Assembly: GCA_041595355.1 (NCBI GenBank)
Contig: JBFHKO010000001.1
Location: 1-40,782 of the forward strand
Origin: Aeromonadaceae bacterium
GTDB taxonomy: Bacteria; Pseudomonadota; Gammaproteobacteria; Enterobacterales; Aeromonadaceae
DNA length: 40,782 nt
Direction of reading: 5' to 3'
How positions within the stretch are numbered: position 1 is the first letter of the stretch; every line of letters starts with the position of its first letter. Below the pieces are notes generated by a model. That model had not been told where the DNA came from. It ran no database searches and saw only the letters and a program-made list of their open reading frames with translations. Of this stretch, positions 14,501 to 40,782 are shown one piece after another. A program made the translations under genes and the position numbers.

Positions 14501-16213
14501 ATGACCAAGATCCTGATTGTAGGCGGGGTGGCCGGTGGCGCCTCCGCCGCCGCCCGTGCACGCCGGCTCAGCGAAACCGCCGAAATCATCCTGTTCGAGC
14601 GCGGTGAATTCATCTCCTTTGCCAATTGCGGGCTGCCCTACCATATCGGTGGCGACATCCCCTCCCGCGATGCCTTGCTGCTGCAAACGCCCCAGAGCCT
14701 GAAGCGTCGTTTCAATATCGAGGTGCGGACCTTCAACGAGGTGGTGGCCATCGAGCGGGCACAGAAGCAGGTTACGGTGCGCAACCTGTTGACCGGTGAG
14801 CAATATCAGGAGAGCTATGACAAGCTGCTGCTGAGCCCGGGCGCTGCGCCGCTACGCCCGCCCATCCCCGGCATCGATAATCCGCATACTTTCAGCCTGC
14901 GCAATATTCCCGACATGGATCGCATCCTGGCGGCGCTGGAGCATGATAAACCCGCGCATGCCACCGTGGTGGGCGGGGGATTCATCGGCCTGGAGATGAT
15001 GGAGGCGCTGCATCAGCGCGGCCTCAAGGTGTCGCTGGTGGAACTTTCCGGACAGGTGATGGCGCCGGTGGACAGGGAGATGGCCAACCTGCTGCATCAG
15101 GCCATGGTCGACAGGGGCATCGATCTGCGTCTGAATACCGGTTTGATGAGCGTGGAAACTCTGGATCTGCCGCCGGCAGAGCAGGAGGCGAGCGGTGACT
15201 TCGAGGCGGCCACCGAGTCGGGGGTACGTGGCCTGCGGCTGACCCTGAGCGATGGTCAGCAACTGGATACCGGTCTGCTGATCCTGGCCATAGGCGTGAA
15301 GCCGGAGACACTGCTGGCCGCCCAGGCCGGCCTGGAGCTGGGGCCCCGTGGCGGCATCTGGGTGGATGCCGGCATGCGTACCTCGGATGCGGATATCTTT
15401 GCCGTTGGCGATGCGGTGGAGGAAACCGATTTTGTCACCGGTCAGCCGACCCTGATCCCGCTGGCCGGCCCCGCCAACCGGCAGGGGCGGATTGCCGCCG
15501 ACAACATGCTCGGACGCAACGAATACTACAAGCGCACCCAGGGCACGGCCATCTGCAAGTTGTTCGATCTGGCGGTGGCCAGCACCGGCCTCAATGAGAA
15601 GGCCCTCAAGCGGGCGGGCCTGGCGTTCGAGAAGATCTATGTGCATCCGGGCAGCCATGCCGGCTACTACCCGGGAGCCCATCCGGTCAGCCTGAAACTG
15701 CTGTTCGATCCGGCGGATGGTCGCATCCTGGGGGCTCAGGCCGTGGGCAAGGATGGCGTCGACAAGCGTATCGATGTGCTGGCGGTGGCTCAGCGTGCCG
15801 GGCTGACGGTGTATGATCTGCAGGATCTGGAGCTCACCTACGCCCCCCCTTTCGGCTCGGCCAAGGATGTGGTGAACATGGCCGGTTTTGTGGCTGCCAA
15901 CCTGTTGAAGGGCGATACGGCCATCTGTCACAGCGAGGATGTGCTGGCACGTGGCGATGAGCAGTGGGTGCTGGATGTACGTAATCCGGGCGAGCTGGAG
16001 AGTCACGGTCGTATCGAGGGCGCCATCAACATACCCGTGGATGAGCTGCGCGGGCAGCTGCACAATCTGCCCAGGGACAAGGAGATCCTGGTGACCTGCC
16101 AGGTCGGTCTGCGTGGTCATGTGGCCTGTCGCCTGCTGGTCAATGCCGGCTTCCGGGCCCGCAATCTCTCCGGTGGCTTCAAGACCTTTCAGATGGCCAC
16201 CGCACGTTTCTGA
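14501..16213 (+). CDS. CoA-disulfide reductase / NADH-dependent persulfide reductase with C-terminal rhodanese domain
   Basis: 570 aa. GGVAGGASAA FAD motif, redox Cys in SFANCGLPY, second dinucleotide motif VVGGGFIGLE, and a C-terminal rhodanese with active-site loop CQVGLRG. Confidence 0.9.
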   Translation: MTKILIVGGVAGGASAAARARRLSETAEIILFERGEFISFANCGLPYHIGGDIPSRDALLLQTPQSLKRRFNIEVRTFNEVVAIERAQKQVTVRNLLTGEQYQESYDKLLLSPGAAPLRPPIPGIDNPHTFSLRNIPDMDRILAALEHDKPAHATVVGGGFIGLEMMEALHQRGLKVSLVELSGQVMAPVDREMANLLHQAMVDRGIDLRLNTGLMSVETLDLPPAEQEASGDFEAATESGVRGLRLTLSDGQQLDTGLLILAIGVKPETLLAAQAGLELGPRGGIWVDAGMRTSDADIFAVGDAVEETDFVTGQPTLIPLAGPANRQGRIAADNMLGRNEYYKRTQGTAICKLFDLAVASTGLNEKALKRAGLAFEKIYVHPGSHAGYYPGAHPVSLKLLFDPADGRILGAQAVGKDGVDKRIDVLAVAQRAGLTVYDLQDLELTYAPPFGSAKDVVNMAGFVAANLLKGDTAICHSEDVLARGDEQWVLDVRNPGELESHGRIEGAINIPVDELRGQLHNLPRDKEILVTCQVGLRGHVACRLLVNAGFRARNLSGGFKTFQMATARF

Positions 16214-22443: not shown

Positions 22444-22881
22444 ATGCGATTGACGAGTCTGTTTTCCGGATTGCTGTTCGGACTGGGGCTGGCGGTCTCC
22501 GGCATGGTGCAGCCGCAGAAGGTGCAGGGTTTTCTGGATCTGGCCGGAGTCTGGGATCCAAGCCTGGCTCTGGTGATGGTCGCCGCCATAGGGGTGTTCC
22601 TGCCCGGTTACCTGCTGCTGATAAAACCGCGTCGGCAGAGCCTGTCAGGCCAGCCTTTTCATCTGAGCAACAAGGCGGGCATCGAGCCGGTGCTGCTGCT
22701 GGGCGCTGCCCTGTTTGGTATCGGCTGGGGGCTGGTGGGCGTCTGTCCGGGACCGGCGCTGGCGTTGCTGGCCAGCGGCCAGGCCAGCGCGGTTGGCTTC
22801 GTGCTGGCGATGCTGGCCGGCATCAAGCTGGGCTGCTGGATACAGGAATGGCAGCTCAGGCGCCTGACGTCGGCCGGATAG
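22444..22881 (+). CDS. YeeE/YedE family (DUF6691-like) sulfur-compound transporter, half-size subunit 2
   Basis: 145 aa. MRLTSLFSGLLFGLGLAVSGM..P.KV.GFLD......WDPSL..VM......GIGWGLVGVCPGPA. This is the typical partner of the preceding half-transporter. Confidence 0.85.
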   Translation: MRLTSLFSGLLFGLGLAVSGMVQPQKVQGFLDLAGVWDPSLALVMVAAIGVFLPGYLLLIKPRRQSLSGQPFHLSNKAGIEPVLLLGAALFGIGWGLVGVCPGPALALLASGQASAVGFVLAMLAGIKLGCWIQEWQLRRLTSAG

Positions 22882-22900
22882 GCGGCATGCCCGCGATGAT

Positions 22901-22927
22901 GTCCAGGGGGCCGCTGGCCCCCTGGAC
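22901..22927. terminator. Hairpin between convergent genes
   Basis: gtccagggggcc-gct-ggccccctggac, 12-bp perfect stem with a very small loop. Confidence 0.55.
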
Positions 22928-22931
22928 CGTC

Positions 22932-23432
22932 TCAGGCGGCGAGGATCTTGCGGATTTCCTGGATGGAAAGCTTGTAGAGGCGAGGGCAGGCCTTCCAGGC
23001 ATTCAGCATGCGCTGGTATTTGTCGCGCATGGCGAGCTCGGAGTTGAGATCGGCACACCCCTTTTCAAGCTCAGGGAAGCGGCGCTCCACATCCAGCAGG
23101 TAGCAGACATAGTCGGCCAGCGCCTTTTCATGGCTGCGGGAATAACCGATGAACTCCAGGCGCGAAAAGGCAAGCTCCCGGCGCTCATCGGCGGGCAGGT
23201 TTTCGTAAGAGACCTTCATGGCATGGTACATCTCCAAGCTGTCCAGTACCTCGCGGCACACCTCTTCGCTCAGGTAGCCGAATCCCTTCTCCAGCTCCAG
23301 CATCTGCAGGCCATAACCGCGCTCAATGATGGTTTGGCATTGCTTGTAGTGCTCGGCGCGCTGCGGATCCAGCTTGCTTAGAATGTCGTATTGGTTGCTG
23401 AGGATCAGGCGCTGGGCGTGGGTCATGTTCAT
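22932..23432 (-). CDS. yfbU: YfbU family protein (UPF0304)
   Basis: From ATG 23432 (RBS AGAAGGA): MNMTHAQRLILSNQYDILSKLDP...QTIIERGYGLQMLELE...EMYHAMKVSYENL...KYQRMLNAWKACPR. This is collinear with E. coli YfbU. Confidence 0.9.
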   Translation of the reverse strand: MNMTHAQRLILSNQYDILSKLDPQRAEHYKQCQTIIERGYGLQMLELEKGFGYLSEEVCREVLDSLEMYHAMKVSYENLPADERRELAFSRLEFIGYSRSHEKALADYVCYLLDVERRFPELEKGCADLNSELAMRDKYQRMLNAWKACPRLYKLSIQEIRKILAA

Positions 23433-23707
23433 CGGTGTGTTCCTTCTGGTCTGGTGACGATGATTCGCAGGACATTTTGCTAAGGATTCTGCTGCAATGT
23501 GAACAATGAGTGCAATCACTGTTATCGCATTGTTGGTGTCGGATTCTGCCACGCCTGGCGGCGTTAAGCGTTGAGCGGCATCAAGCCTTGGCCGGTGAGA
23601 CCACGCAGGCGCGGGAAAATATATTTACCTGATGCCGGGCGCACGCTCTGTTGTTGCTGCGGATTCTGCATTAGCATGGGCGCACTCGAAAATGAGGTGT
23701 GGCAAGT

Positions 23708-24253
23708 ATGCAACGCAAGCTTAAAGCGCTCTTTATTCTGTTAATTCTCGCACTGTCCGCCTTCTACCTGGGCGTCCTGTACCTGGCAGCACATCCGAAC
23801 GTCAGTATGGCGTACCGGATGTATTATCTGGAGATGAAAACCAAGTTCTGGAGCAGAAACCAGACCCTGGCCTACATTCCCGGTACCCCCATCGATCTGG
23901 TCACGGAACGCGCTTTTTATCTGACGCGTCAGGGCTGGTCCAAACCCGACAAGGCTGGCCGAGGCTCCGAATTCAGCGGCGAGGGCGGCCTCTATTTCAC
24001 TTTGCACCGGGTGCCGGGTCGGCTGCGTTTCGAGGGGCAGTTGACGACGCCCGTGGACGGGGTCGAATTGCGCGTCTCGGTGGGGACTCAATGGTCCGAA
24101 ACCCTGCATTTTGACCAGGCCGGGGCGAACCGCTTTGCGGTGGAGCTGCCGAGCGGCCTGCTGGTGGCCGATCCGCTGACACCCAATCTGATCAGTCTGC
24201 ATGCCAGTCATGCGTTGCTGTTCCAGTCATTCATGCTTTCTCACCTGGAGTGA
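23708..24253 (+). CDS. Hypothetical N-terminally anchored membrane/periplasmic protein, first gene of the glycosylation cluster
   Basis: ATG 23708 follows GAGG at 23695-23698 (the track uses GTG 23699). MQRKLKALFILLILALSAFYLGVLYLAA anchor, then a ~150-aa soluble domain. I recognise no family. Confidence 0.55.
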   Translation: MQRKLKALFILLILALSAFYLGVLYLAAHPNVSMAYRMYYLEMKTKFWSRNQTLAYIPGTPIDLVTERAFYLTRQGWSKPDKAGRGSEFSGEGGLYFTLHRVPGRLRFEGQLTTPVDGVELRVSVGTQWSETLHFDQAGANRFAVELPSGLLVADPLTPNLISLHASHALLFQSFMLSHLE

Positions 24254-24265
24254 TGAGGTTTTTTC

Positions 24266-25252
24266 ATGGATAGAGAGCGTTTTACCCTGTCGCTGGTGGT
24301 GCCGGTCTACAACGAAGAAGAAAACATCCAGTCCTTCATCGACAGCATGGATCGGGAACTGGCGCCCCTGCGCGACCAACTGCAGATCCTGTTCATCAAT
24401 GACGGCAGCCGCGATCGCACCCGTGACATCATCACCGAGGTGATAGCGCGCGACCCAAGGGTGAGCCTGGTCAATCTGGCGCGCAACTTCGGCAAGGAAG
24501 CGGCCATGACGGCGGGGCTGGCCCATGCGCGTGGCGATGCCGTGGTACCCATGGATGTGGATCTGCAGGATCCGCCGGCGCTGATCCTGGAGTTTGTCCG
24601 TCTGTGGCAGCAGGGCTACGATACGGTCTATGGCGTAAGGACCGACCGCACCGCGGATACCCCCATGAAGCGGTTGACCGCCGGCGGCTTCTACCGCTTC
24701 TTCAATGCCGTGTCGACAACGATGCAAATACCTGAAAATGCTGGTGATTTCAGGCTGATGGACCGCCGGGTGGTGGATGTGATCAACCAGTTGCCCGAGC
24801 GTAACCGCTTCATGAAGGGGCTGTTTGCCTGGCCCGGCTTCAGGGCCATAGGGGTGCCCTACGAACGCCCGGCACGCCAGGCGGGGACCACCAAGTTCAA
24901 CTACTGGAAACTGTGGAACTTCGCCCTGGATGGTCTGCTCAGCTTTTCCAGCTGGCCGCTGCGGGTCTGGAGTTATGTCGGTGCCGGGGTTGCGGCCCTG
25001 AGTTTCCTGTTCATGCTGTTTATCATCGGCAAGGTATTGGCCACCGGGGTCGACATTCCGGGTTACGCCTCCCTGATGTGCGTAGTGCTGTTTCTCGGCG
25101 GCATGCAGTTGCTCTCCATCGGCGTGCTGGGGGAATACGTGGCGCGCATGTTCCTGGAAGTGAAGCAGCGGCCGGTGTTTGTGGTGGAGGGTGTCTACGG
25201 TCAGTATGCCCGGGAGCCCGCCGGACAGCCGACAGGGCCGGCCGAGGCATGA
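24266..25252 (+). CDS. GT2 polyprenyl-phosphate glycosyltransferase (GtrB/ArnC-like)
   Basis: 328 aa. LSLVVPVYNEEENI, INDGSRD, NFGKEAA, PMDVDLQDPP (DXD region), and two C-terminal TM helices, as in GtrB-type enzymes. Confidence 0.92.
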   Translation: MDRERFTLSLVVPVYNEEENIQSFIDSMDRELAPLRDQLQILFINDGSRDRTRDIITEVIARDPRVSLVNLARNFGKEAAMTAGLAHARGDAVVPMDVDLQDPPALILEFVRLWQQGYDTVYGVRTDRTADTPMKRLTAGGFYRFFNAVSTTMQIPENAGDFRLMDRRVVDVINQLPERNRFMKGLFAWPGFRAIGVPYERPARQAGTTKFNYWKLWNFALDGLLSFSSWPLRVWSYVGAGVAALSFLFMLFIIGKVLATGVDIPGYASLMCVVLFLGGMQLLSIGVLGEYVARMFLEVKQRPVFVVEGVYGQYAREPAGQPTGPAEA

Positions 25253-25641: not shown

Positions 25642-26829
25642 ATGCGTGCAGAAAACGTAAACGTGCTTGTCGAACCGCTCTCCATCGGCAGGAAAGATTG
25701 GGGCATGATAGTGCTGGCCTTTTTGATCAGCCGGGCCGTGCTCTACGCCATTGGCTTCTTTGGTGCCATGCATTACAACGTGGAGACCGATCTCATCGAT
25801 ACCACGGCGTTGAATCTGGCGGAGTCCATTGATGTGGATATTCCCGGTATTTTCTGCCAATTCGACTGCGGCTGGTTTCTCAGTATCGCCGACATCGGCT
25901 ACGACACCTTTCCCCACGGTCTCACCACCGGACATGCGGCCAACTGGGCTTTCTTCCCCCTGTTCCCGCTGGCCGGACACTGGCTGGGAGAGCTGCTCGG
26001 CATCGGCACCCTGAAGGCCTTTTACCTGATCGCCAATCTTTCCTTCCTGGCGGCCTTGCCGCTGTTTTTCCTTTGCCTGCGGCAATTGGGGCAGAGTCTG
26101 GAAGTGGCGCGCTACGGGGTCTGGCTGTTGGCATTCTCACCCTACTCCATCTATTTCATCGCCCCCTATACCGAGTCCACGTTCATGGCGCTGATGCTGG
26201 TGGTATTCCTGTTTGCCTATCGCCATCGCTGGCTGTGGGTGGCGCTGGCCGGGGTGGCGCTGACGGCGACCCGCAACCTGGGGGTCATGGTGGTGTTCTC
26301 GGTGTTGATCCTGGCGCTGCAGGCCTATGGCTGGCGCGAGCTGGTGCGGCTCGGCGATCGTGGCCTGCGGGTCTGGCTGACCATCTGGGTGATACCGCTG
26401 GCGATCTTCGGCTACATGTTCTACATGCACTTTCACATCGGTGATGCGTTTGCGTTCAAGAACATACAGCTGGCCTGGGGACGCATGTTCGACAATCCCT
26501 TCGAGTATTGGTGGTCCGGGTTTGAAACCGGTGGGCGCAAGTATTATCTGTCGGTGGTCATCGCGCTGGGGTGGCTGCTGAATGGATACCTGTTCTGGCA
26601 GCGGCGCTATGCCGAGGCGGTGCTCATGCTGGTATGCATCTTCGTGCCCATAGTGACCGGCACCAATGCCTTCCCGCGCTACCTGTTCGGCCTCTATCCG
26701 ACCATGCTGGCCATCGTCCTGTTTACCCGCAACAAACCCATGATGCGGCCATTGATCCTGGCGTTGTCGGCGTTGCTCTCCAGCTACTTCGTCATCGCCT
26801 GGGTCAATGCCAAATTCTTCATCGTCTGA
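25642..26829 (+). CDS. Polytopic GT-C-type membrane glycosyltransferase (PIG-V/ArnT/GtrC-like)
   Basis: 395 aa with ~10 predicted hydrophobic helices. The first periplasmic loop carries acidic residues (FDCGWFLSIADIGYD). It sits directly after the GtrB/GtrA-like genes. Confidence 0.75.
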   Translation: MRAENVNVLVEPLSIGRKDWGMIVLAFLISRAVLYAIGFFGAMHYNVETDLIDTTALNLAESIDVDIPGIFCQFDCGWFLSIADIGYDTFPHGLTTGHAANWAFFPLFPLAGHWLGELLGIGTLKAFYLIANLSFLAALPLFFLCLRQLGQSLEVARYGVWLLAFSPYSIYFIAPYTESTFMALMLVVFLFAYRHRWLWVALAGVALTATRNLGVMVVFSVLILALQAYGWRELVRLGDRGLRVWLTIWVIPLAIFGYMFYMHFHIGDAFAFKNIQLAWGRMFDNPFEYWWSGFETGGRKYYLSVVIALGWLLNGYLFWQRRYAEAVLMLVCIFVPIVTGTNAFPRYLFGLYPTMLAIVLFTRNKPMMRPLILALSALLSSYFVIAWVNAKFFIV

Positions 26830-33980: not shown

Positions 33981-34262
33981 TGTGAACTCCTTTAGGTAGA
34001 ACCTTGAATCCCTGCCATCTGAGGCGCTGCCATTATGGTACAGGCTGGGTAGCTTGCACAGTGGCTGCCAAAAAAATCGTACTCATACGGGCAGTTTCCG
34101 GGCCCCGAGCCAAGGGCCATGGGGCTGGTCTTGCCGGTAAGGGACGCGCCTTTTCGGCAGACTCAATACCAGTGTAGTTTGCCTTTTCTAAAAAACATTT
34201 ATTTATAATGACTTAGCCTATTTTAACGCTGAAGGCAGGGCCTGCAGCCCTCCAGCCCAGTG

Positions 34263-34451
34263 ATGCCCGGTCACCTTTTACAGTATGATCAGGCTTCGAT
34301 TGAGTTAAATTTTGACGAAGTCGACAAGTTACAACTGTTAGATCCAACAGCTCGATTTTTTGGTTTACCTTCTGTATGCGACAAGGTAGTATGCGATGGT
34401 TGCCAATTGACAATGCTGCATTACACTTACAACAATACAAAAACAGAATAA
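34263..34451 (+). CDS. Doubtful small ORF (62 aa, acidic, CX4CX2C) in the AT-rich leader upstream of the XRE gene
   Basis: MPGHLLQYDQASIELNFDEVDKLQLLDPTARFFGLPSVCDKVVCDGCQLTMLHYTYNNTKTE. There is no convincing RBS and I recognise no family. It is listed only because it is the sole sizeable same-strand ORF in the island. Confidence 0.2.
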   Translation: MPGHLLQYDQASIELNFDEVDKLQLLDPTARFFGLPSVCDKVVCDGCQLTMLHYTYNNTKTE

Positions 34452-34541
34452 TGAGAGAGTGGGATAAATCTGATGGATACACACTATAGACATGACTGAA
34501 CCAATGCGGACTCTTGTTCCGCAGCATGAACGAGGAATCGT

Positions 34542-34805
34542 ATGAATATCAGCACTCTCTCCGTTGGACAAAAAATTCGCCTGATCCGGGAAACCGTAGG
34601 CCTGAGTCGCCCCAAGTTTGCTGAACTGCTCGGCGTGCCGCCGACGACACTGAAAAATTACGAACTGGGTTACCGCGAAGTGGGTGGCGCCTTCCTGGTG
34701 GCGCTGGCACGCCAGGAGCAACTGCATTGTTTTACCCTCTGGCTGCTGTCCGACAAGACGGCCCTGGAGATTGGTCAGATCAGCCCGGCCGAATACAGCA
34801 AGTGA
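34542..34805 (+). CDS. XRE/Cro-CI family helix-turn-helix transcriptional regulator
   Basis: 87 aa. RBS GAGGAA 5 nt upstream. VGQKIRLIRETVGLSRPKFAELLGVPPTTLKNYELGYRE is a canonical HTH_XRE core. Confidence 0.8.
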   Translation: MNISTLSVGQKIRLIRETVGLSRPKFAELLGVPPTTLKNYELGYREVGGAFLVALARQEQLHCFTLWLLSDKTALEIGQISPAEYSK

Positions 34806-34832
34806 TGCCGCAGCAGGCATGATATTGTCGAC

Positions 34833-34864
34833 AAAACGCCACCTTCGGGTGGCGTTTTGTTTTG
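34833..34864 (+). terminator. Rho-independent terminator after the XRE gene
   Basis: aaaacgccacc-ttcg-ggtggcgtttt, 11-bp stem, followed by gttttg. Confidence 0.88.
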
Positions 34865-34930
34865 CTTGCGTGGCACCGGTATTACACTGGATCCTGATCG
34901 CTCTCCCATTCAATTCAGAGGAATTGCATC

Positions 34931-36571: not shown

Positions 36572-38724
36572 TCAGGTTCCCCGGCGCCATTGGTGATAAC
36601 GGGCCACCCAGCTCAGCAGGCGAGGGGAGACATGGGCGCGTTTCCATTCACCGGCCGCGTACTTGTTGGCTTCGGCCAGGGTGGGGTAGCTGTGGAGGGT
36701 GGACAATATCTTGTTCAGTCCCAGCTTCCAGCGCATCGCCAATACGAATTCGGCCAGCAACTCGCCGGCATGTTCGCCCACCAGGCTGACACCGAGGATG
36801 CGATCCTTGCCTGGCTGGGTCAGGACTTTGACAAAGCCCTGGGTGATGCCATCGGTAATCGCCCGGTCGAGGTCCCGCATCTCGAAGCGGGTCACTTCAT
36901 AGGCGATGCCCTGCTGCCTGGCCTCCTGCTCGTTCAGGCCGACCCGGGCGATTTCGGGATCGGTGAAGGTTGTCCAGGGAATGGCGCTGTAGTCGACCTT
37001 GAATTTGCGCAGGCTGCCGAACAGGGCATTGACGGTGGCATACCAGGCCTGATGACCGGCGGTATGGGTAAACTGATAGGGCCCGGCCACATCACCGGCC
37101 GCGAAGATGTTGGGGTAGAGGGTCTCCAGATAGTCGTTGGTCTGCACGGTGCGCTGCGTCGGAATACCGAGCTCCTCAAGACCGAAACCGCTCAGTCGCG
37201 GGGCGCGTCCGACGGCACACAGCAGCATGTCGAATTCGAGGCGCTGAGTCTGGCCCGCATGCTCGACCAGCAGGCATTTATGTTCTGCTTCGCGTTCGCA
37301 GCCGAGGGCCCGGTGGCCGGTGAGCACGCGGATGCCATCGGCCTCCAGAGCCTGTCGAGCAACATCTGATACCTCCTCATCTTCATGACTCAGGATCCTG
37401 GGGCCCATCTCGATCTGAGTCACCTGCGAGCCCAGGCGCGCCAGTGCCTGAGCCAGCTCGCAGCCGATGGGACCGCCACCCAGTATGATGAGTCGCCTGG
37501 GCGCGGCATCCAGTTGGGCCAATGCCTCCCACAGGGTATCCGAGGTGAGATACCCCACCTCGTCGAGACCCGGCAAGGGGGGCACTGCCGGGCGGGCACC
37601 GGCGGCGATGATGATGCTGCGGGCCGTCAGGCGCTCGGTGTGGCCATCGGGCGTCTCAATCTCGACGGTCCAGGGATCGCACAGGCGGGCATACCCTTGG
37701 CGCACCTCGACCCCGAGGGTGGTGTAACGCTCAACGCTGTCATGAGGGGCGACGCGGCGGATCACCTCATGCACCCGGGCCATCACCTGACGAAATGAAA
37801 CCTGCGGCGGCATGCCGGTCAGGCCGTAGCGTTCGGCGTGACGCAGCTGATGGGCCAGTTTGGCGCTGCGGATCAGGGCCTTGCTGGGGACACAACCGTA
37901 ATTCAGGCAGTCGCCGCCCATCTTGTGGGCCTCGATGAGGGTCACCTTGGCTTTCACGGCGGCGGCAATGTAGGCGCTGACCAGACCGGCCGCGCCGGCC
38001 CCGATGACAATGAGGTTGCGCTCGAAACGGGCGGGCTTACGCCAACGGGCATAGATCCGCCGCCGCTGCCAGACGCCGACCGCCAGTTTGGCTAGCCAGG
38101 GAAAGAGACCCAGCAGTGCAAAGGAGAGCAGCAGCCCCGGTGACAAGATGCCGCCGAGGTGGGTGAGTTGCGCCAGCTGGGTGCCGGCGTTGACGTACAC
38201 CAGGGTGCCGGCCAGCATGCCAATCTGACTGACGCCGTAGAAGGTTGCCCCGCGCATCGGCGTCAGCCCCATCAGCAGATTGATGAGGAAAAAGGGAAAC
38301 ACCGGTATCAGACGCAAGGTGAACAGATAGAAGGCGCCATCCCGGGCGATGCCGGCGTTGACCGCCTCGAGCCGTTCGCCAAAGCGCGCCTGCACACTGT
38401 CGCGCAGCAGATAGCGGGCGGACAGGAAGGCCAGCAAGGCGCCAATACTGGATGCGAACGACACTAGTATGGTTCCCCAGAGCAGACCAAACAGGGCTCC
38501 TGCCGCCACTGTCATCAGCGCCGCCCCCGGCAGCGAGGGGGCGACCACCAGCACATAAACGAGGAAAAACAGTGTGGCCGCCAGGAAGGGGGAGTGCGCC
38601 CGCCATTCAAGCAGGGCGCCGAGCCCCGATTTCAATGCCGACAGGGTGAAGTAGCGCGGCAGATCGAAGGCGAAGAAGAGGATCACCATCAGGATGATGG
38701 CGAGCAGAAGTAGTCCCTTTTTCA
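36572..38724 (-). CDS. Fusion protein: N-terminal DedA/TVP38-TMEM64 membrane domain + C-terminal class-I pyridine-nucleotide-disulfide oxidoreductase (mercuric reductase/lipoamide dehydrogenase-like)
   Basis: From ATG 38724 (RBS GGAGG 6 nt upstream): MKKGLLLLAIILMVILFF... with ~6 TM helices (LRLIPVFPFFLINLLMG is DedA-type). Then NLIVIGAGAAGLVSA, the redox disulfide GGDCLNYGCVPSK, a second Rossmann motif ILGGGPIGCELA, and a C-terminal dimerisation domain ...HSYPTLAE. The track ORF adds 101 implausible upstream codons. Confidence 0.88.
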
Positions 38725-39076
38725 TGTGTGGCCTCCGAGCCTGGAATGGGCGGCCTGCTGTGTGACGGGGCCGTGTTGAGTTGGATGCGTCATGTTCGTC
38801 CCTGGTTATTCCGATGTTGGGGTCTAGATCGGGGCCGGCAGTCCGATTATTACCGCTGTGCAGCATTAAGCATTGGTCAGGATCCCGTGGCCAGCCATGG
38901 TCATTGCCATGCCGATCCGGCATGCAAATGCGAATGCGTGTAAGAAACAGTGTACCCGGGACGACAGAAGGAGTACGAAAACCCTGTTGCGAACCATTAT
39001 CCCGTTGCAGCGGTTTTCTCCCAGCCACCCGGCTGCGGGTTCAACCCACCCCATCAATTCGGATAGGAGCTTGACC

Positions 39077-39379
39077 ATGAACCAGAAAATCAGTGCCGTT
39101 TCCCTTGCGCTGGCCCTCGGCGCCGCCATGACCGTCGTTGCCGTTCCTGCCAGTGCCGCTGATGATGTGGCGGCCAAGGAGAAGTGCTTCGGCGTCGCGC
39201 TCAAGGGCAAGAATGATTGCAAGGCCGGCGCCGGCACCACCTGTGCAGGTTCGTCCAAGATAGACTATCAGGGTAATGCCTGGTCGCTGGTGCCTGCCGG
39301 CACCTGCGAGAAAACGGTGTCACCCACCTCCGCGACTGGCTATGGTCAGCTCGAAGAATTCGAGGAAGTGAAGGCCTGA
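39077..39379 (+). CDS. bufA: DUF2282 secreted Cys-containing peptide: bufferin-type RiPP precursor (BufA-like)
   Basis: 100 aa from ATG 39077 (RBS AGGAG 7 nt upstream). Sec signal [27 protein letters not shown], then [45 protein letters not shown] (4 Cys in the DUF2282 pattern). Directly upstream of a DUF692 gene. Confidence 0.85.
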
Positions 39380-39413
39380 ACAGGTGATTAGCCCGGGATC
39401 AGGGAGCGCTGGC

Positions 39414-40328
39414 ATGAGCACAGTCAATCAATCCGAGCGGCAGGTGCCCGCCAGCGCGCCCCCTTTCTCGGCGGTGGCCGCCTTGCCGCCGCGGGTGGGG
39501 CTCGGTCTCAAACCCGAGCACTTCGCCGAGATAGTCGACCACTGGCCGGATATCGGTTTTTTTGAGATACATGCCGAAAATTATCTGGTTCCCGGTGGCC
39601 CCTTCCACCATTACCTGACCCGCATTCGCGAGCACTACCCCCTCTCCATGCATGGCGTGGGGTTGTCCATCGGCAGCGAGGGCCCCCTTGACGGTGACCA
39701 CTTGCAGGCCTTGCGGATCTTGCTCGAACGTTATCAGCCGGGTGCGTTTTCCGAACACCTGGCCTGGTCCACCCATGGCCCGCGATTCCTGAACGATTTG
39801 CTGCCGCTGGCGTACAGCCCGGCGGCACTGTCCCGGGTCTGTGATCACATTGATGAAGTGCAGTCGATTCTGGGGCGGCGCATGCTGCTGGAAAATCCTG
39901 CCACCTATGTCGAATTCGCGCACTCGAGCTACAGCGAGCCCGACTTCATCAGTGAGGTGATCCGCCGCACCGGTTGTGGCCTGCTGCTGGATGTCAACAA
40001 TGCCTATGTGACCTGTACCAATCATGGCCTGGATGTCGATGCCTATCTGGAGCAGCTGCCGCTGCAGGCGGTAGGGGAGATCCACCTGGCCGGTTTCAGC
40101 CGTGACAGCGATACGCTGGGGGCGCCACTGCTTATCGACAGCCATGGCAGTCGGGTGGACCCGGCGGTGTGGCGCCTCTATGCCCGCATGCTGGCGCGCA
40201 TCGGCGCCCAGCCTACCCTGATCGAGTGGGACAACGAGGTGCCACCTTTCGCCACCCTTTGGGACGAGGCGCGTCGAGCCGAGGGCTTCCTGGCGGCCGG
40301 GCAACCGGCACGGGTGGTGGTCTCATGA
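39414..40328 (+). CDS. bufB: DUF692 family multinuclear non-haem iron oxidative enzyme (MNIO; BufB/MbnB-like)
   Basis: GLGLKPEHFAEI...FFEIHAENY...HGVGLSIGS...SEHLAWS...LLENPATYV...LLLDVNNAYV...GEIHLAGF...PTLIEWD are the TIM-barrel DUF692 signature blocks. I prefer ATG 39414; the track uses GTG 39384. Confidence 0.9.
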   Translation: MSTVNQSERQVPASAPPFSAVAALPPRVGLGLKPEHFAEIVDHWPDIGFFEIHAENYLVPGGPFHHYLTRIREHYPLSMHGVGLSIGSEGPLDGDHLQALRILLERYQPGAFSEHLAWSTHGPRFLNDLLPLAYSPAALSRVCDHIDEVQSILGRRMLLENPATYVEFAHSSYSEPDFISEVIRRTGCGLLLDVNNAYVTCTNHGLDVDAYLEQLPLQAVGEIHLAGFSRDSDTLGAPLLIDSHGSRVDPAVWRLYARMLARIGAQPTLIEWDNEVPPFATLWDEARRAEGFLAAGQPARVVVS

Positions 40329-40782
40329 GCGAACAACGCCGCTGGGCGGCTGCCCTGCTGGATCCCGGGCTGACGCCACCCGATGGCCTGACCACCTGGA
40401 ACGGCTCGGATCCGGCCGGACGGTTCGCCGTCTACCGCAACAATGTCATGGCGTCGCTCATCGATGCCCTGGCACAGACGTTCGCCGTCACCCGTGAGTT
40501 GGTCGGGGAGCCTTTCTTCCGCGCCATGGCCCGGGCGTTCGTGAGTGTCTCACCGCCCGGGTCACCGGTGCTGGCGTACTACGGGCGTGATTTCCCCGCC
40601 TTCATCGCCGACTTTGCGCCGGCGGCCAGTTTGCCCTACCTGGCCGAGGTCGCCCGTCTGGAAATGGCCTATGTGGAGGCCTTCCATGGACCGGATGCCA
40701 CCCCGGTATCTCCCGAGCACCTGGCGGCCGCCCTGGCCATTCCCGAGCGTCTGTCCGGCATGCAGCTCAGGCTGCATCCGAC
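40325..40782 (+). CDS. bufC: DUF2063 domain protein (MNIO partner; BufC/HvfC-like), 5' part, continuing past the right window edge
   Basis: Not in the track because it is open at the edge. ATGA overlap with the DUF692 stop. Hand translation: MSEQRRWAAALLDPGLTPPDGLTTWNGSDPAGRFAVYRNNVMASLIDALAQTFAVTRELVGEPFFRAMARAF.... FxVYRNN is the typical DUF2063 N-terminal motif. Confidence 0.85.
   Translation, partial: MSEQRRWAAALLDPGLTPPDGLTTWNGSDPAGRFAVYRNNVMASLIDALAQTFAVTRELVGEPFFRAMARAFVSVSPPGSPVLAYYGRDFPAFIADFAPAASLPYLAEVARLEMAYVEAFHGPDATPVSPEHLAAALAIPERLSGMQLRLHP

Follow-up and report, generated by a model that had tools for sequence, protein, structure and literature searches.

Genes of the bufferin-type cluster

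We examined a 40,782-nt stretch of DNA from an Aeromonadaceae bacterium (contig JBFHKO010000001.1), hereafter the window, whose right edge carries three genes of the type associated with bufferins, a class of peptides that are made on the ribosome and modified after translation (RiPPs). These are bufA, which encodes a DUF2282 precursor, bufB, which encodes a DUF692 multinuclear non-haem iron oxidase (MNIO), and bufC, which encodes a DUF2063 partner protein and is cut by the window end (Table 1). A preliminary description had proposed an edge-truncated bufferin-type operon of this composition; all three genes lie where it placed them, and their profile matches are strong. Translations were searched against Pfam and NCBIfam models and judged by the curated cut-offs, and the scores obtained for bufA, bufB and bufC are far beyond chance. 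The identities of the genes and their family membership are established. For comparison, GTDB species genomes were scanned with BufB, yielding 80 related loci (61-69% identity) from Beta- and Gammaproteobacteria, including Halothiobacillus, Chromatiaceae, Pseudomonas, Rhodocyclaceae and Competibacteraceae. The closest relative, Logan contig L087, is syntenic with the window at 77-83% nucleotide identity and has the order reductase (minus strand), bufA, bufB, bufC (261 aa), doxX (167 aa) and a J-domain gene. An identical precursor occurs on one contig only (L001, 1.6 kb), which is contained within the window.

Table 1 Features at the right edge of the window
Feature	Position	Strand	Basis or detail
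717-aa fusion of a VTT/DedA (TVP38) membrane domain and a class-I pyridine-nucleotide disulfide oxidoreductase	36572-38725	-	VTT_dom, Pyr_redox_2, Pyr_redox_dim
Weak sigmaF-like site GGTAATAATCGGACTGCCGGCCCCGATCTA facing the divergent gene, ~100 nt before its ATG	38825-38856	-	Position weight matrix (PWM)
Putative sigmaF/ECF-type bufA promoter	38939-38968	+	-35 TGTAAGAAA 38939-38947; -10 CGACAGA 38962-38968
5' leader, ~100 nt, with AGGAG at 39065-39069	38969-39076	+	Sequence reading
bufA, 100-aa BufA1/DUF2282 precursor	ATG 39077 to TGA 39379	+	Pfam PF10048
Predicted Sec signal peptide, residues 1-27	39077-39157	+	A-S-A/A; inspection and homology
Predicted mature core, 73 aa	39158-39376	+	Cleavage after Ala27
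bufB, 304-aa MNIO (DUF692)	ATG 39414 to TGA 40328	+	PF05114, NF050167
bufC, 5' part, 152 aa; the MNIO partner's N-terminal DUF2063 domain	40325-40782	+	PF09836

The bufA reading frame is preceded by an AGGAG ribosome-binding site, and its product matches PF10048 (DUF2282/BufA1) across residues 34-82 with 84.1 bits against a cut-off of 22.4, which bears out the initial family assignment. More than 4400 homologs are present in the databases. Many of them are ~100 aa long and 72-82% identical over their full length, and NCBI or UniRef lists several of them as "BufA1 family periplasmic bufferin-type metallophore". Cysteines occupy residues 37, 48, 56 and 77 (10, 21, 29 and 50 in core numbering; CysI to CysIV) with a spacing of 11, 8 and 21, and all four are invariant both in a separate alignment of 26 precursors and in a set of 75 BufA sequences (the window's own and 74 from related loci). 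The four-cysteine DUF2282 arrangement read from the window alone is therefore upheld by alignment with family members, and the cysteine register is established. At the N-terminus, inspection and homology point to a Sec signal peptide with Lys4 in the n-region, hydrophobic residues 7-23 and an AxA site (P24-A-S-A27/A28). Pro24 is invariant and Ala27 nearly invariant in the 26-sequence alignment. These features agree with the cleavage after Pro-Ala-Ser-Ala that was first suggested, which would release a core with a computed isoelectric point of 4.9 and a monoisotopic mass of 7457.55 Da.

The residues following CysIV had been singled out as an unusual acidic tail. This holds for their net charge of -3, the acidic extreme, which is reached in 3 of the 75 sequences, most of which range from +1 to +3; the value arises because Glu replaces Lys or Ala at three positions (EEFEEVKA versus the consensus AEFKEKKA). 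It does not hold for their sequence or length. The motif S-x-x-S-x-[ST]-G-x-G follows CysIV in 73 of the 75 sequences, the window included, where the pattern reads S-x-T-S-x-T-G-x-G-Q-L-x-E-F-x-E-x-K-A, and among the tails of exactly 23 residues (n = 56) S5, S8, G11, G13 and F18 are invariant. Since the Pfam model stops at residue 82 and leaves the tail outside the domain, the tail represents a subfamily feature, ~7 residues longer than in Caulobacter.

The DUF692 gene follows the precursor as described, starting 34 nt (rather than 35 nt) after the bufA stop codon. BufB scores 341 bits with Pfam PF05114 (MbnB_TglH_ChrH) and 378.2 bits with the NCBIfam equivalog NF050167 (MNIO_BufB), whose cut-off is 310, and it stays below the equivalog cut-offs of HvfB (222 versus 360), MbnB (58.4 versus 325), ApyH and ChrH. 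The preliminary description had allowed that the enzyme might belong to a different MNIO subfamily; only the BufB equivalog is passed, and the partner is a DUF2063 protein, not MbnC. Among solved structures the DUF692 protein 3BWW is closest (E = 2e-39), and BufB has the conserved His/Asp/Glu motifs of the metal site in the TIM barrel (EIHAEN, MHG, SEHL, LEN, DVNN, IHLAG, DSHG and EWD).

The start codon of bufC overlaps the bufB stop codon within an ATGA, confirming the overlap reported earlier, and its visible part matches PF09836 (DUF2063) with 86.5 bits against a cut-off of 27.2. Full-length homologs have 251-263 aa, and the C-terminal half, which would hold a domain resembling a RiPP recognition element (RRE), falls past the window edge. 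A continuation of the contig beyond 40782 was sought by exact BufB look-up and by scanning metagenome contigs for exact matches to the window's last 41 nt, and neither returned one. Sufficient sequence 3' of bufC is available for 66 related loci; in 63 of these a gene of ~175 aa, DoxX by Pfam, follows bufC directly. The completeness of the operon in the relatives is established, and because doxX also follows bufC in L087, the window operon is probably bufABCD with doxX just past the window edge.

Putative promoter and leader of the operon

The long (~350 nt) stretch upstream of bufA had also been described as a feature of the locus. It corresponds to the intergenic region 38726-39076 between bufA and a divergent gene with its ATG at 38725, and as such is shared by a divergent pair rather than being an anomalously long untranslated region.

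Gapped dyads were enumerated in the 200 nt upstream of bufA at 75 loci, including the window, and compared with shuffled sequences. The dyad TGTAAG...CGAC occurs in 43 of the 75 upstream regions, while any dyad in the shuffles reaches 7 at most. A looser pattern, GTAA-N17/18-CGAC, lies 65-132 nt before the bufA ATG at 47 loci (46 relatives and the window), whose consensus is TGTAAG(A/G)AA-N-(C)CGACTAA; conservation of this motif is established. In the window, TGTAAGAAA-N14-CGAC spans 38939-38965 (full copy TGTAAGAAACAGTGTACCCGGGACGAC), 111 nt 5' of the bufA ATG. A PWM built from the sites of the 46 relatives assigns it 19.1 bits, and the next-best match on both strands (81.5 kb) reaches 8.0. 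The motif has the form of a promoter for an extracytoplasmic function (ECF) sigma factor, follows the SigF-type pattern GTAAnn-N15/16-CGAn upstream of the operon, and closely resembles the Caulobacter sigmaF site, which suggests a putative promoter. That site, GTAACC-N16-CGAA upstream of CC3254, was mapped by 5' rapid amplification of cDNA ends upstream of the buf1 operon, and long leaders were noted in the same study (PMC3511200).

Hairpins are predicted in the window leader (-31.6 kcal/mol, z = -2.2); across the 47 motif-bearing loci the mean z is -0.85. Most bufA leaders in relatives (for example L021, L041, L057 and L071) open with (C/T)AGCAG and a hairpin after the -10 element. The window leader lacks AGCAG, yet also folds. 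No Rfam family was matched in the upstream region at E <= 1, and a sigma-70 promoter scan of 38600-39500 returned no sites. Two terminator-like matches in the same interval, both within coding sequence and on the minus strand, were disregarded, and the short repeats of the upstream region, direct or inverted, look like chance. Among the 80 related loci, 19 have an ECF sigma gene within 6 kb, and published surveys list sigma and NrsF genes as frequent Buf1 neighbors.

Assignment, proposed mechanism and alternatives

We consider it very likely that the locus is a canonical bufferin-1 (Buf1, "gig"-type) RiPP gene cluster of the order bufA-bufB-bufC, in which the window edge interrupts bufC and doxX/bufD would follow right after it. 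Several lines of evidence lead to this assignment: all Pfam and NCBIfam matches exceed their curated cut-offs; BufB passes its own equivalog model and fails those of HvfB, MbnB, ApyH and ChrH; the cysteine spacing and the Asp-Cys-Lys context equal those of Caulobacter BufA1; the bufABCD order is kept in 63 of 66 relatives and in L087; and within the window the promoter motif stands alone, is conserved in 46 relatives and resembles the Caulobacter sigmaF site. Every sequence-level hallmark of Buf1 that the window permits examining is present, and nothing found contradicts the assignment.

The best-characterized counterpart is the buf1 operon of Caulobacter vibrioides (CCNA_03363-03366). There, BufB and BufC modify the two central cysteines, and the peptide, once exported by Sec, buffers copper in the periplasm (Leprevost et al. 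PNAS 2024, PMC11626156). Mass spectrometry and nuclear magnetic resonance identified CysII and CysIII as 5-thiooxazoles (-4.03 Da) and a CysI-CysIV disulfide (PMC11626156). Later work confirmed the 5-thiooxazole assignment for bufferins and carried it over to the sister EGKCG family, with oxazolin being re-assigned. DoxX (BufD) is frequent in Buf1 clusters and dispensable for modification. The window shares with Caulobacter a DUF2282 precursor with a Sec signal (predicted in the window), in which the spacing 11/8/21 equals that of core Cys12, Cys23, Cys31 and Cys52 and the Asp-Cys-Lys at CysII equals Asp22-Cys23-Lys24, an MNIO gene followed by a DUF2063 gene (and, in the window's relatives, DoxX), and a SigF-like ECF promoter, putative in the window, followed by a long leader. 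It differs in its tail after CysIV, which has 23 residues as opposed to 16 (the Caulobacter core has 68 aa, with CysIV at Cys52) and carries the S-x-T-S-x-T-G-x-G-Q-L-x-E-F motif of a beta/gammaproteobacterial subfamily. An adjacent sigF-nrsF pair is also missing in the window, and a DedA-flavin adenine dinucleotide (FAD) disulfide reductase gene lies divergently adjacent. The gig operons of Cupriavidus metallidurans and Legionella pneumophila (PMC5413113; cited in PMC11626156) have the same DUF2282-DUF692-DUF2063-DoxX architecture and are metal-induced; they are known from expression and phenotype studies only.

By homology to C. vibrioides buf1 (PMC11626156), we infer the chemistry, export, metal specificity and regulator of the window system as follows. 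A SigF/NrsF-type ECF sigma factor, activated by metal or oxidant stress, would transcribe the operon from the TGTAAGAAA-N-CGAC promoter at 38939-38968. In the cytoplasm, the BufB MNIO together with BufC would oxidize Cys48 and Cys56, which stand in the contexts D-C-K and T-C-A, to 5-thiooxazoles in a four-electron reaction each. The precursor would be exported by Sec and cleaved after Ala27, and a Cys37-Cys77 disulfide would staple a small folded protein of 73 residues. If the core were modified as expected, its monoisotopic mass would shift from 7457.55 to 7447.47 Da. The thiooxazole thiolates may then chelate periplasmic copper and so buffer excess metal.

Several points qualify this picture. 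bufC is truncated and doxX is not seen in the window. At the -10 element the window has CGACAGA in place of the consensus CGACTAA, and tblastn detected no ECF sigma homolog in the 40.8-kb window. The signal peptide is judged by inspection and homology only, and an AlphaFold2 model of the precursor from the 26-sequence alignment was uninformative (mean pLDDT, the predicted local distance difference test, 46.6) and unusable for the tail. Copper specificity, finally, is extrapolated, and SigF regulons elsewhere answer Cr, Cd, Au or hypochlorite besides Cu.

This last point leads to the alternative that fares best, although we judge it improbable: a Buf1-type operon whose role is defense against oxidants, reactive chlorine or sulfur species, or other metals, with the divergent reductase forming part of one stress regulon. 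SigF/NrsF regulons respond to hypochlorite in Azospira and to Cr and Cd in Caulobacter, gig operons respond to Au as well as Cu, and some relatives adjoin mer genes, glutaredoxin, thioredoxin or DsbD. Homologs of the reductase fusion (58-70% identity) adjoin buf operons in 12 of the 80 BufB-centred loci, and at L057, L071 and L087 the promoter motif accompanies them. However, the only direct functional data for Buf1 are copper binding and a copper growth phenotype (PMC11626156). The minus-strand motif in the window is weak, scoring 3.8 bits as the fifth-best PWM match, and is degenerate compared with the strong plus-strand site. Searching from the reductase side, buf genes were found within 7 kb in three of five diverse homologs and not near in the other two.

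A cluster of the EGKCG/oxazolin type, in which the same enzyme pair acts on a repeat-containing precursor, is far less probable still. This family, comprising oxazolin (HvfABC-X, Haemophilus influenzae), fontiphorin and gonophorin (the "captophorins", PMC13097082), shares with the window the MNIO subfamily, a DUF2063/RRE partner and often DoxX, and its conversion of Cys to 5-thiooxazole and Sec-dependent export would be common to both. Moreover, BufB matches the HvfB model with 222 bits, BufC matches HvfC with 35.5 bits, and the closest structure, 3BWW, comes from an MNIO-DUF2063 gene cluster of Histophilus somni. Both scores nevertheless fall short of the cut-offs, 360 for HvfB and 142 for HvfC, and BufB does pass the model of its own name. 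The EGKCG precursors are repeat peptides without the DUF2282 fold, whereas the window encodes a four-cysteine DUF2282 protein that has no EGKCG motif, which already refutes this alternative. We give the least credence of all to a methanobactin-like chalkophore cluster (MbnA/MbnB/MbnC) making a small secreted oxazolone-thioamide peptide for copper acquisition: BufB is distantly homologous to MbnB (58 bits in NCBIfam; PDB 7TCR and 7FC0, E ~1e-8), and four-electron MNIO oxidation of Cys to yield a copper ligand may be common to both systems, yet BufB stays far below the MbnB cut-off of 325, its partner is a DUF2063 protein in place of MbnC, methanobactin is secreted to take up copper and does not serve as a periplasmic buffer, the precursor has a predicted Sec signal and a 73-aa core rather than the short leader-dependent form, and MATE or TonB transport genes are not adjacent in the window.

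The Buf1 cluster belongs to a known and well-surveyed kind (PMC12452194) and would not surprise a specialist. Bufferins have already been described chemically, genetically and bioinformatically, thousands of clusters are catalogued, and dedicated NCBIfam and Pfam models exist. The novelty implied at first sight is not sustained: the tail, apart from a few Lys-to-Glu exchanges, is conserved in its subfamily, and the stretch upstream of bufA is a divergent promoter region of the ordinary sort. The locus adds another instance, in an uncultured proteobacterium, with little importance beyond correct annotation. It does yield two by-products, a well-supported ECF-type promoter consensus for beta- and gammaproteobacterial buf1 operons and the recurrent linkage of buf genes to the DedA-FAD disulfide reductase, which could guide work on the connection of bufferins to cytoplasmic redox metabolism.

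The divergent reductase and the remainder of the window

The reductase fusion carries a CLNYGC redox pair and is a member of a very large conserved family. It lacks a C-terminal Cys pair and stays below every NCBIfam cut-off (367 versus 454 for MerA, 206 versus 740 for RclA), and a MerA identity was rejected. At buf loci the reductase gene lies upstream in divergent orientation or, on the same strand, immediately follows doxX. Linkage was noted at L029, L030, L035, L038, L043, L044, L046 and L049, and further at L057, L061, L063, L071, L083, L084 and L087. Elsewhere the reductase sits in a cluster of a radical SAM (rSAM) gene (DUF3641), reductase, DUF547, family-2 glycosyltransferase (GT2) and DUF2064. 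In Herminiimonas and Eoetvoesiella (L083:1-12500 and L084:1-12500), a bufABCD-C92 peptidase cluster lies between merT/merR and a glutaredoxin gene, and on the other side stands a radical-SAM(DUF3641)-reductase fusion-DUF547-GT2-DUF2064-thioredoxin-DsbD cluster, the whole being a dense metal/thiol-redox island.

At L057 and L071 a canonical TGTAAGAA-N-CCGACTAAT site lies 90 nt upstream of the reductase homolog and belongs to it alone. In L087, positions 2300-2450 contain two back-to-back sigmaF-like motifs ~100 bp apart, one directed towards each gene; the reductase-facing copy, AATGTAATAACCGCGCCGTCTGCCACGACCTAAG, is clear and has the same place and orientation as its weak counterpart in the window. 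A literature search found no mention of a DedA/mercuric-reductase link to buf or gig operons. The neighborhood rule of the published survey allows intergenic distances of <=10 bp, and DedA is unmentioned there. The linkage is mildly new, slightly beyond the searchable literature, and a lead rather than a finding. One could speculate, with considerable doubt, that the reductase is an unrecognized accessory of the bufferin/SigF regulon served by back-to-back ECF promoters and, as a separate and equally tentative idea, that the 23-residue tail defines a Buf1 subfamily with an extra function. If so, the reductase could, for instance, reduce Cu(II) or oxidized thiol species at the inner membrane alongside the periplasmic bufferin, and the tail might serve in partner docking or BufC recognition.

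The rest of the window is ordinary chromosome with a GC content of ~62%, and no signs of mobile elements were seen around the buf genes within it. It also carries bioA/B/F/C/D-like genes, TamA/TamB, a CoA-disulfide-reductase-like/rhodanese gene and a LacI regulator, and, from the translations only, open reading frames (ORFs) resembling PurC, DapE, an ArsC-family protein, an OmpA-like protein, an M48-type peptidase and an FKBP isomerase.

A few regions stand out in their own right. On the minus strand, 14523-14691 matches the Rfam family V_AS7 (Vibrio antisense RNA AS7) with 114.5 bits against a gathering score of 90. The match is antisense to the 5' end of a pyridine-nucleotide disulfide reductase/rhodanese gene at 14501-16213 and may simply reflect coding-sequence conservation. 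Between 22000 and 28000 the AT skew is strongly negative (-0.17 to -0.19, compared with approximately -0.03 elsewhere in the window), and three ORFs without a Pfam match (22848-23378, 23699-24250 and 25642-26826) adjoin a family-2 glycosyltransferase gene at 24266-25249. Lastly, the ~950 nt between the OmpA-like and M48-type-peptidase-like ORFs (33981-34930) contain no convincing ORF, are lower in local GC and hold the second- and third-best matches to the promoter matrix, both weak at ~8 bits.

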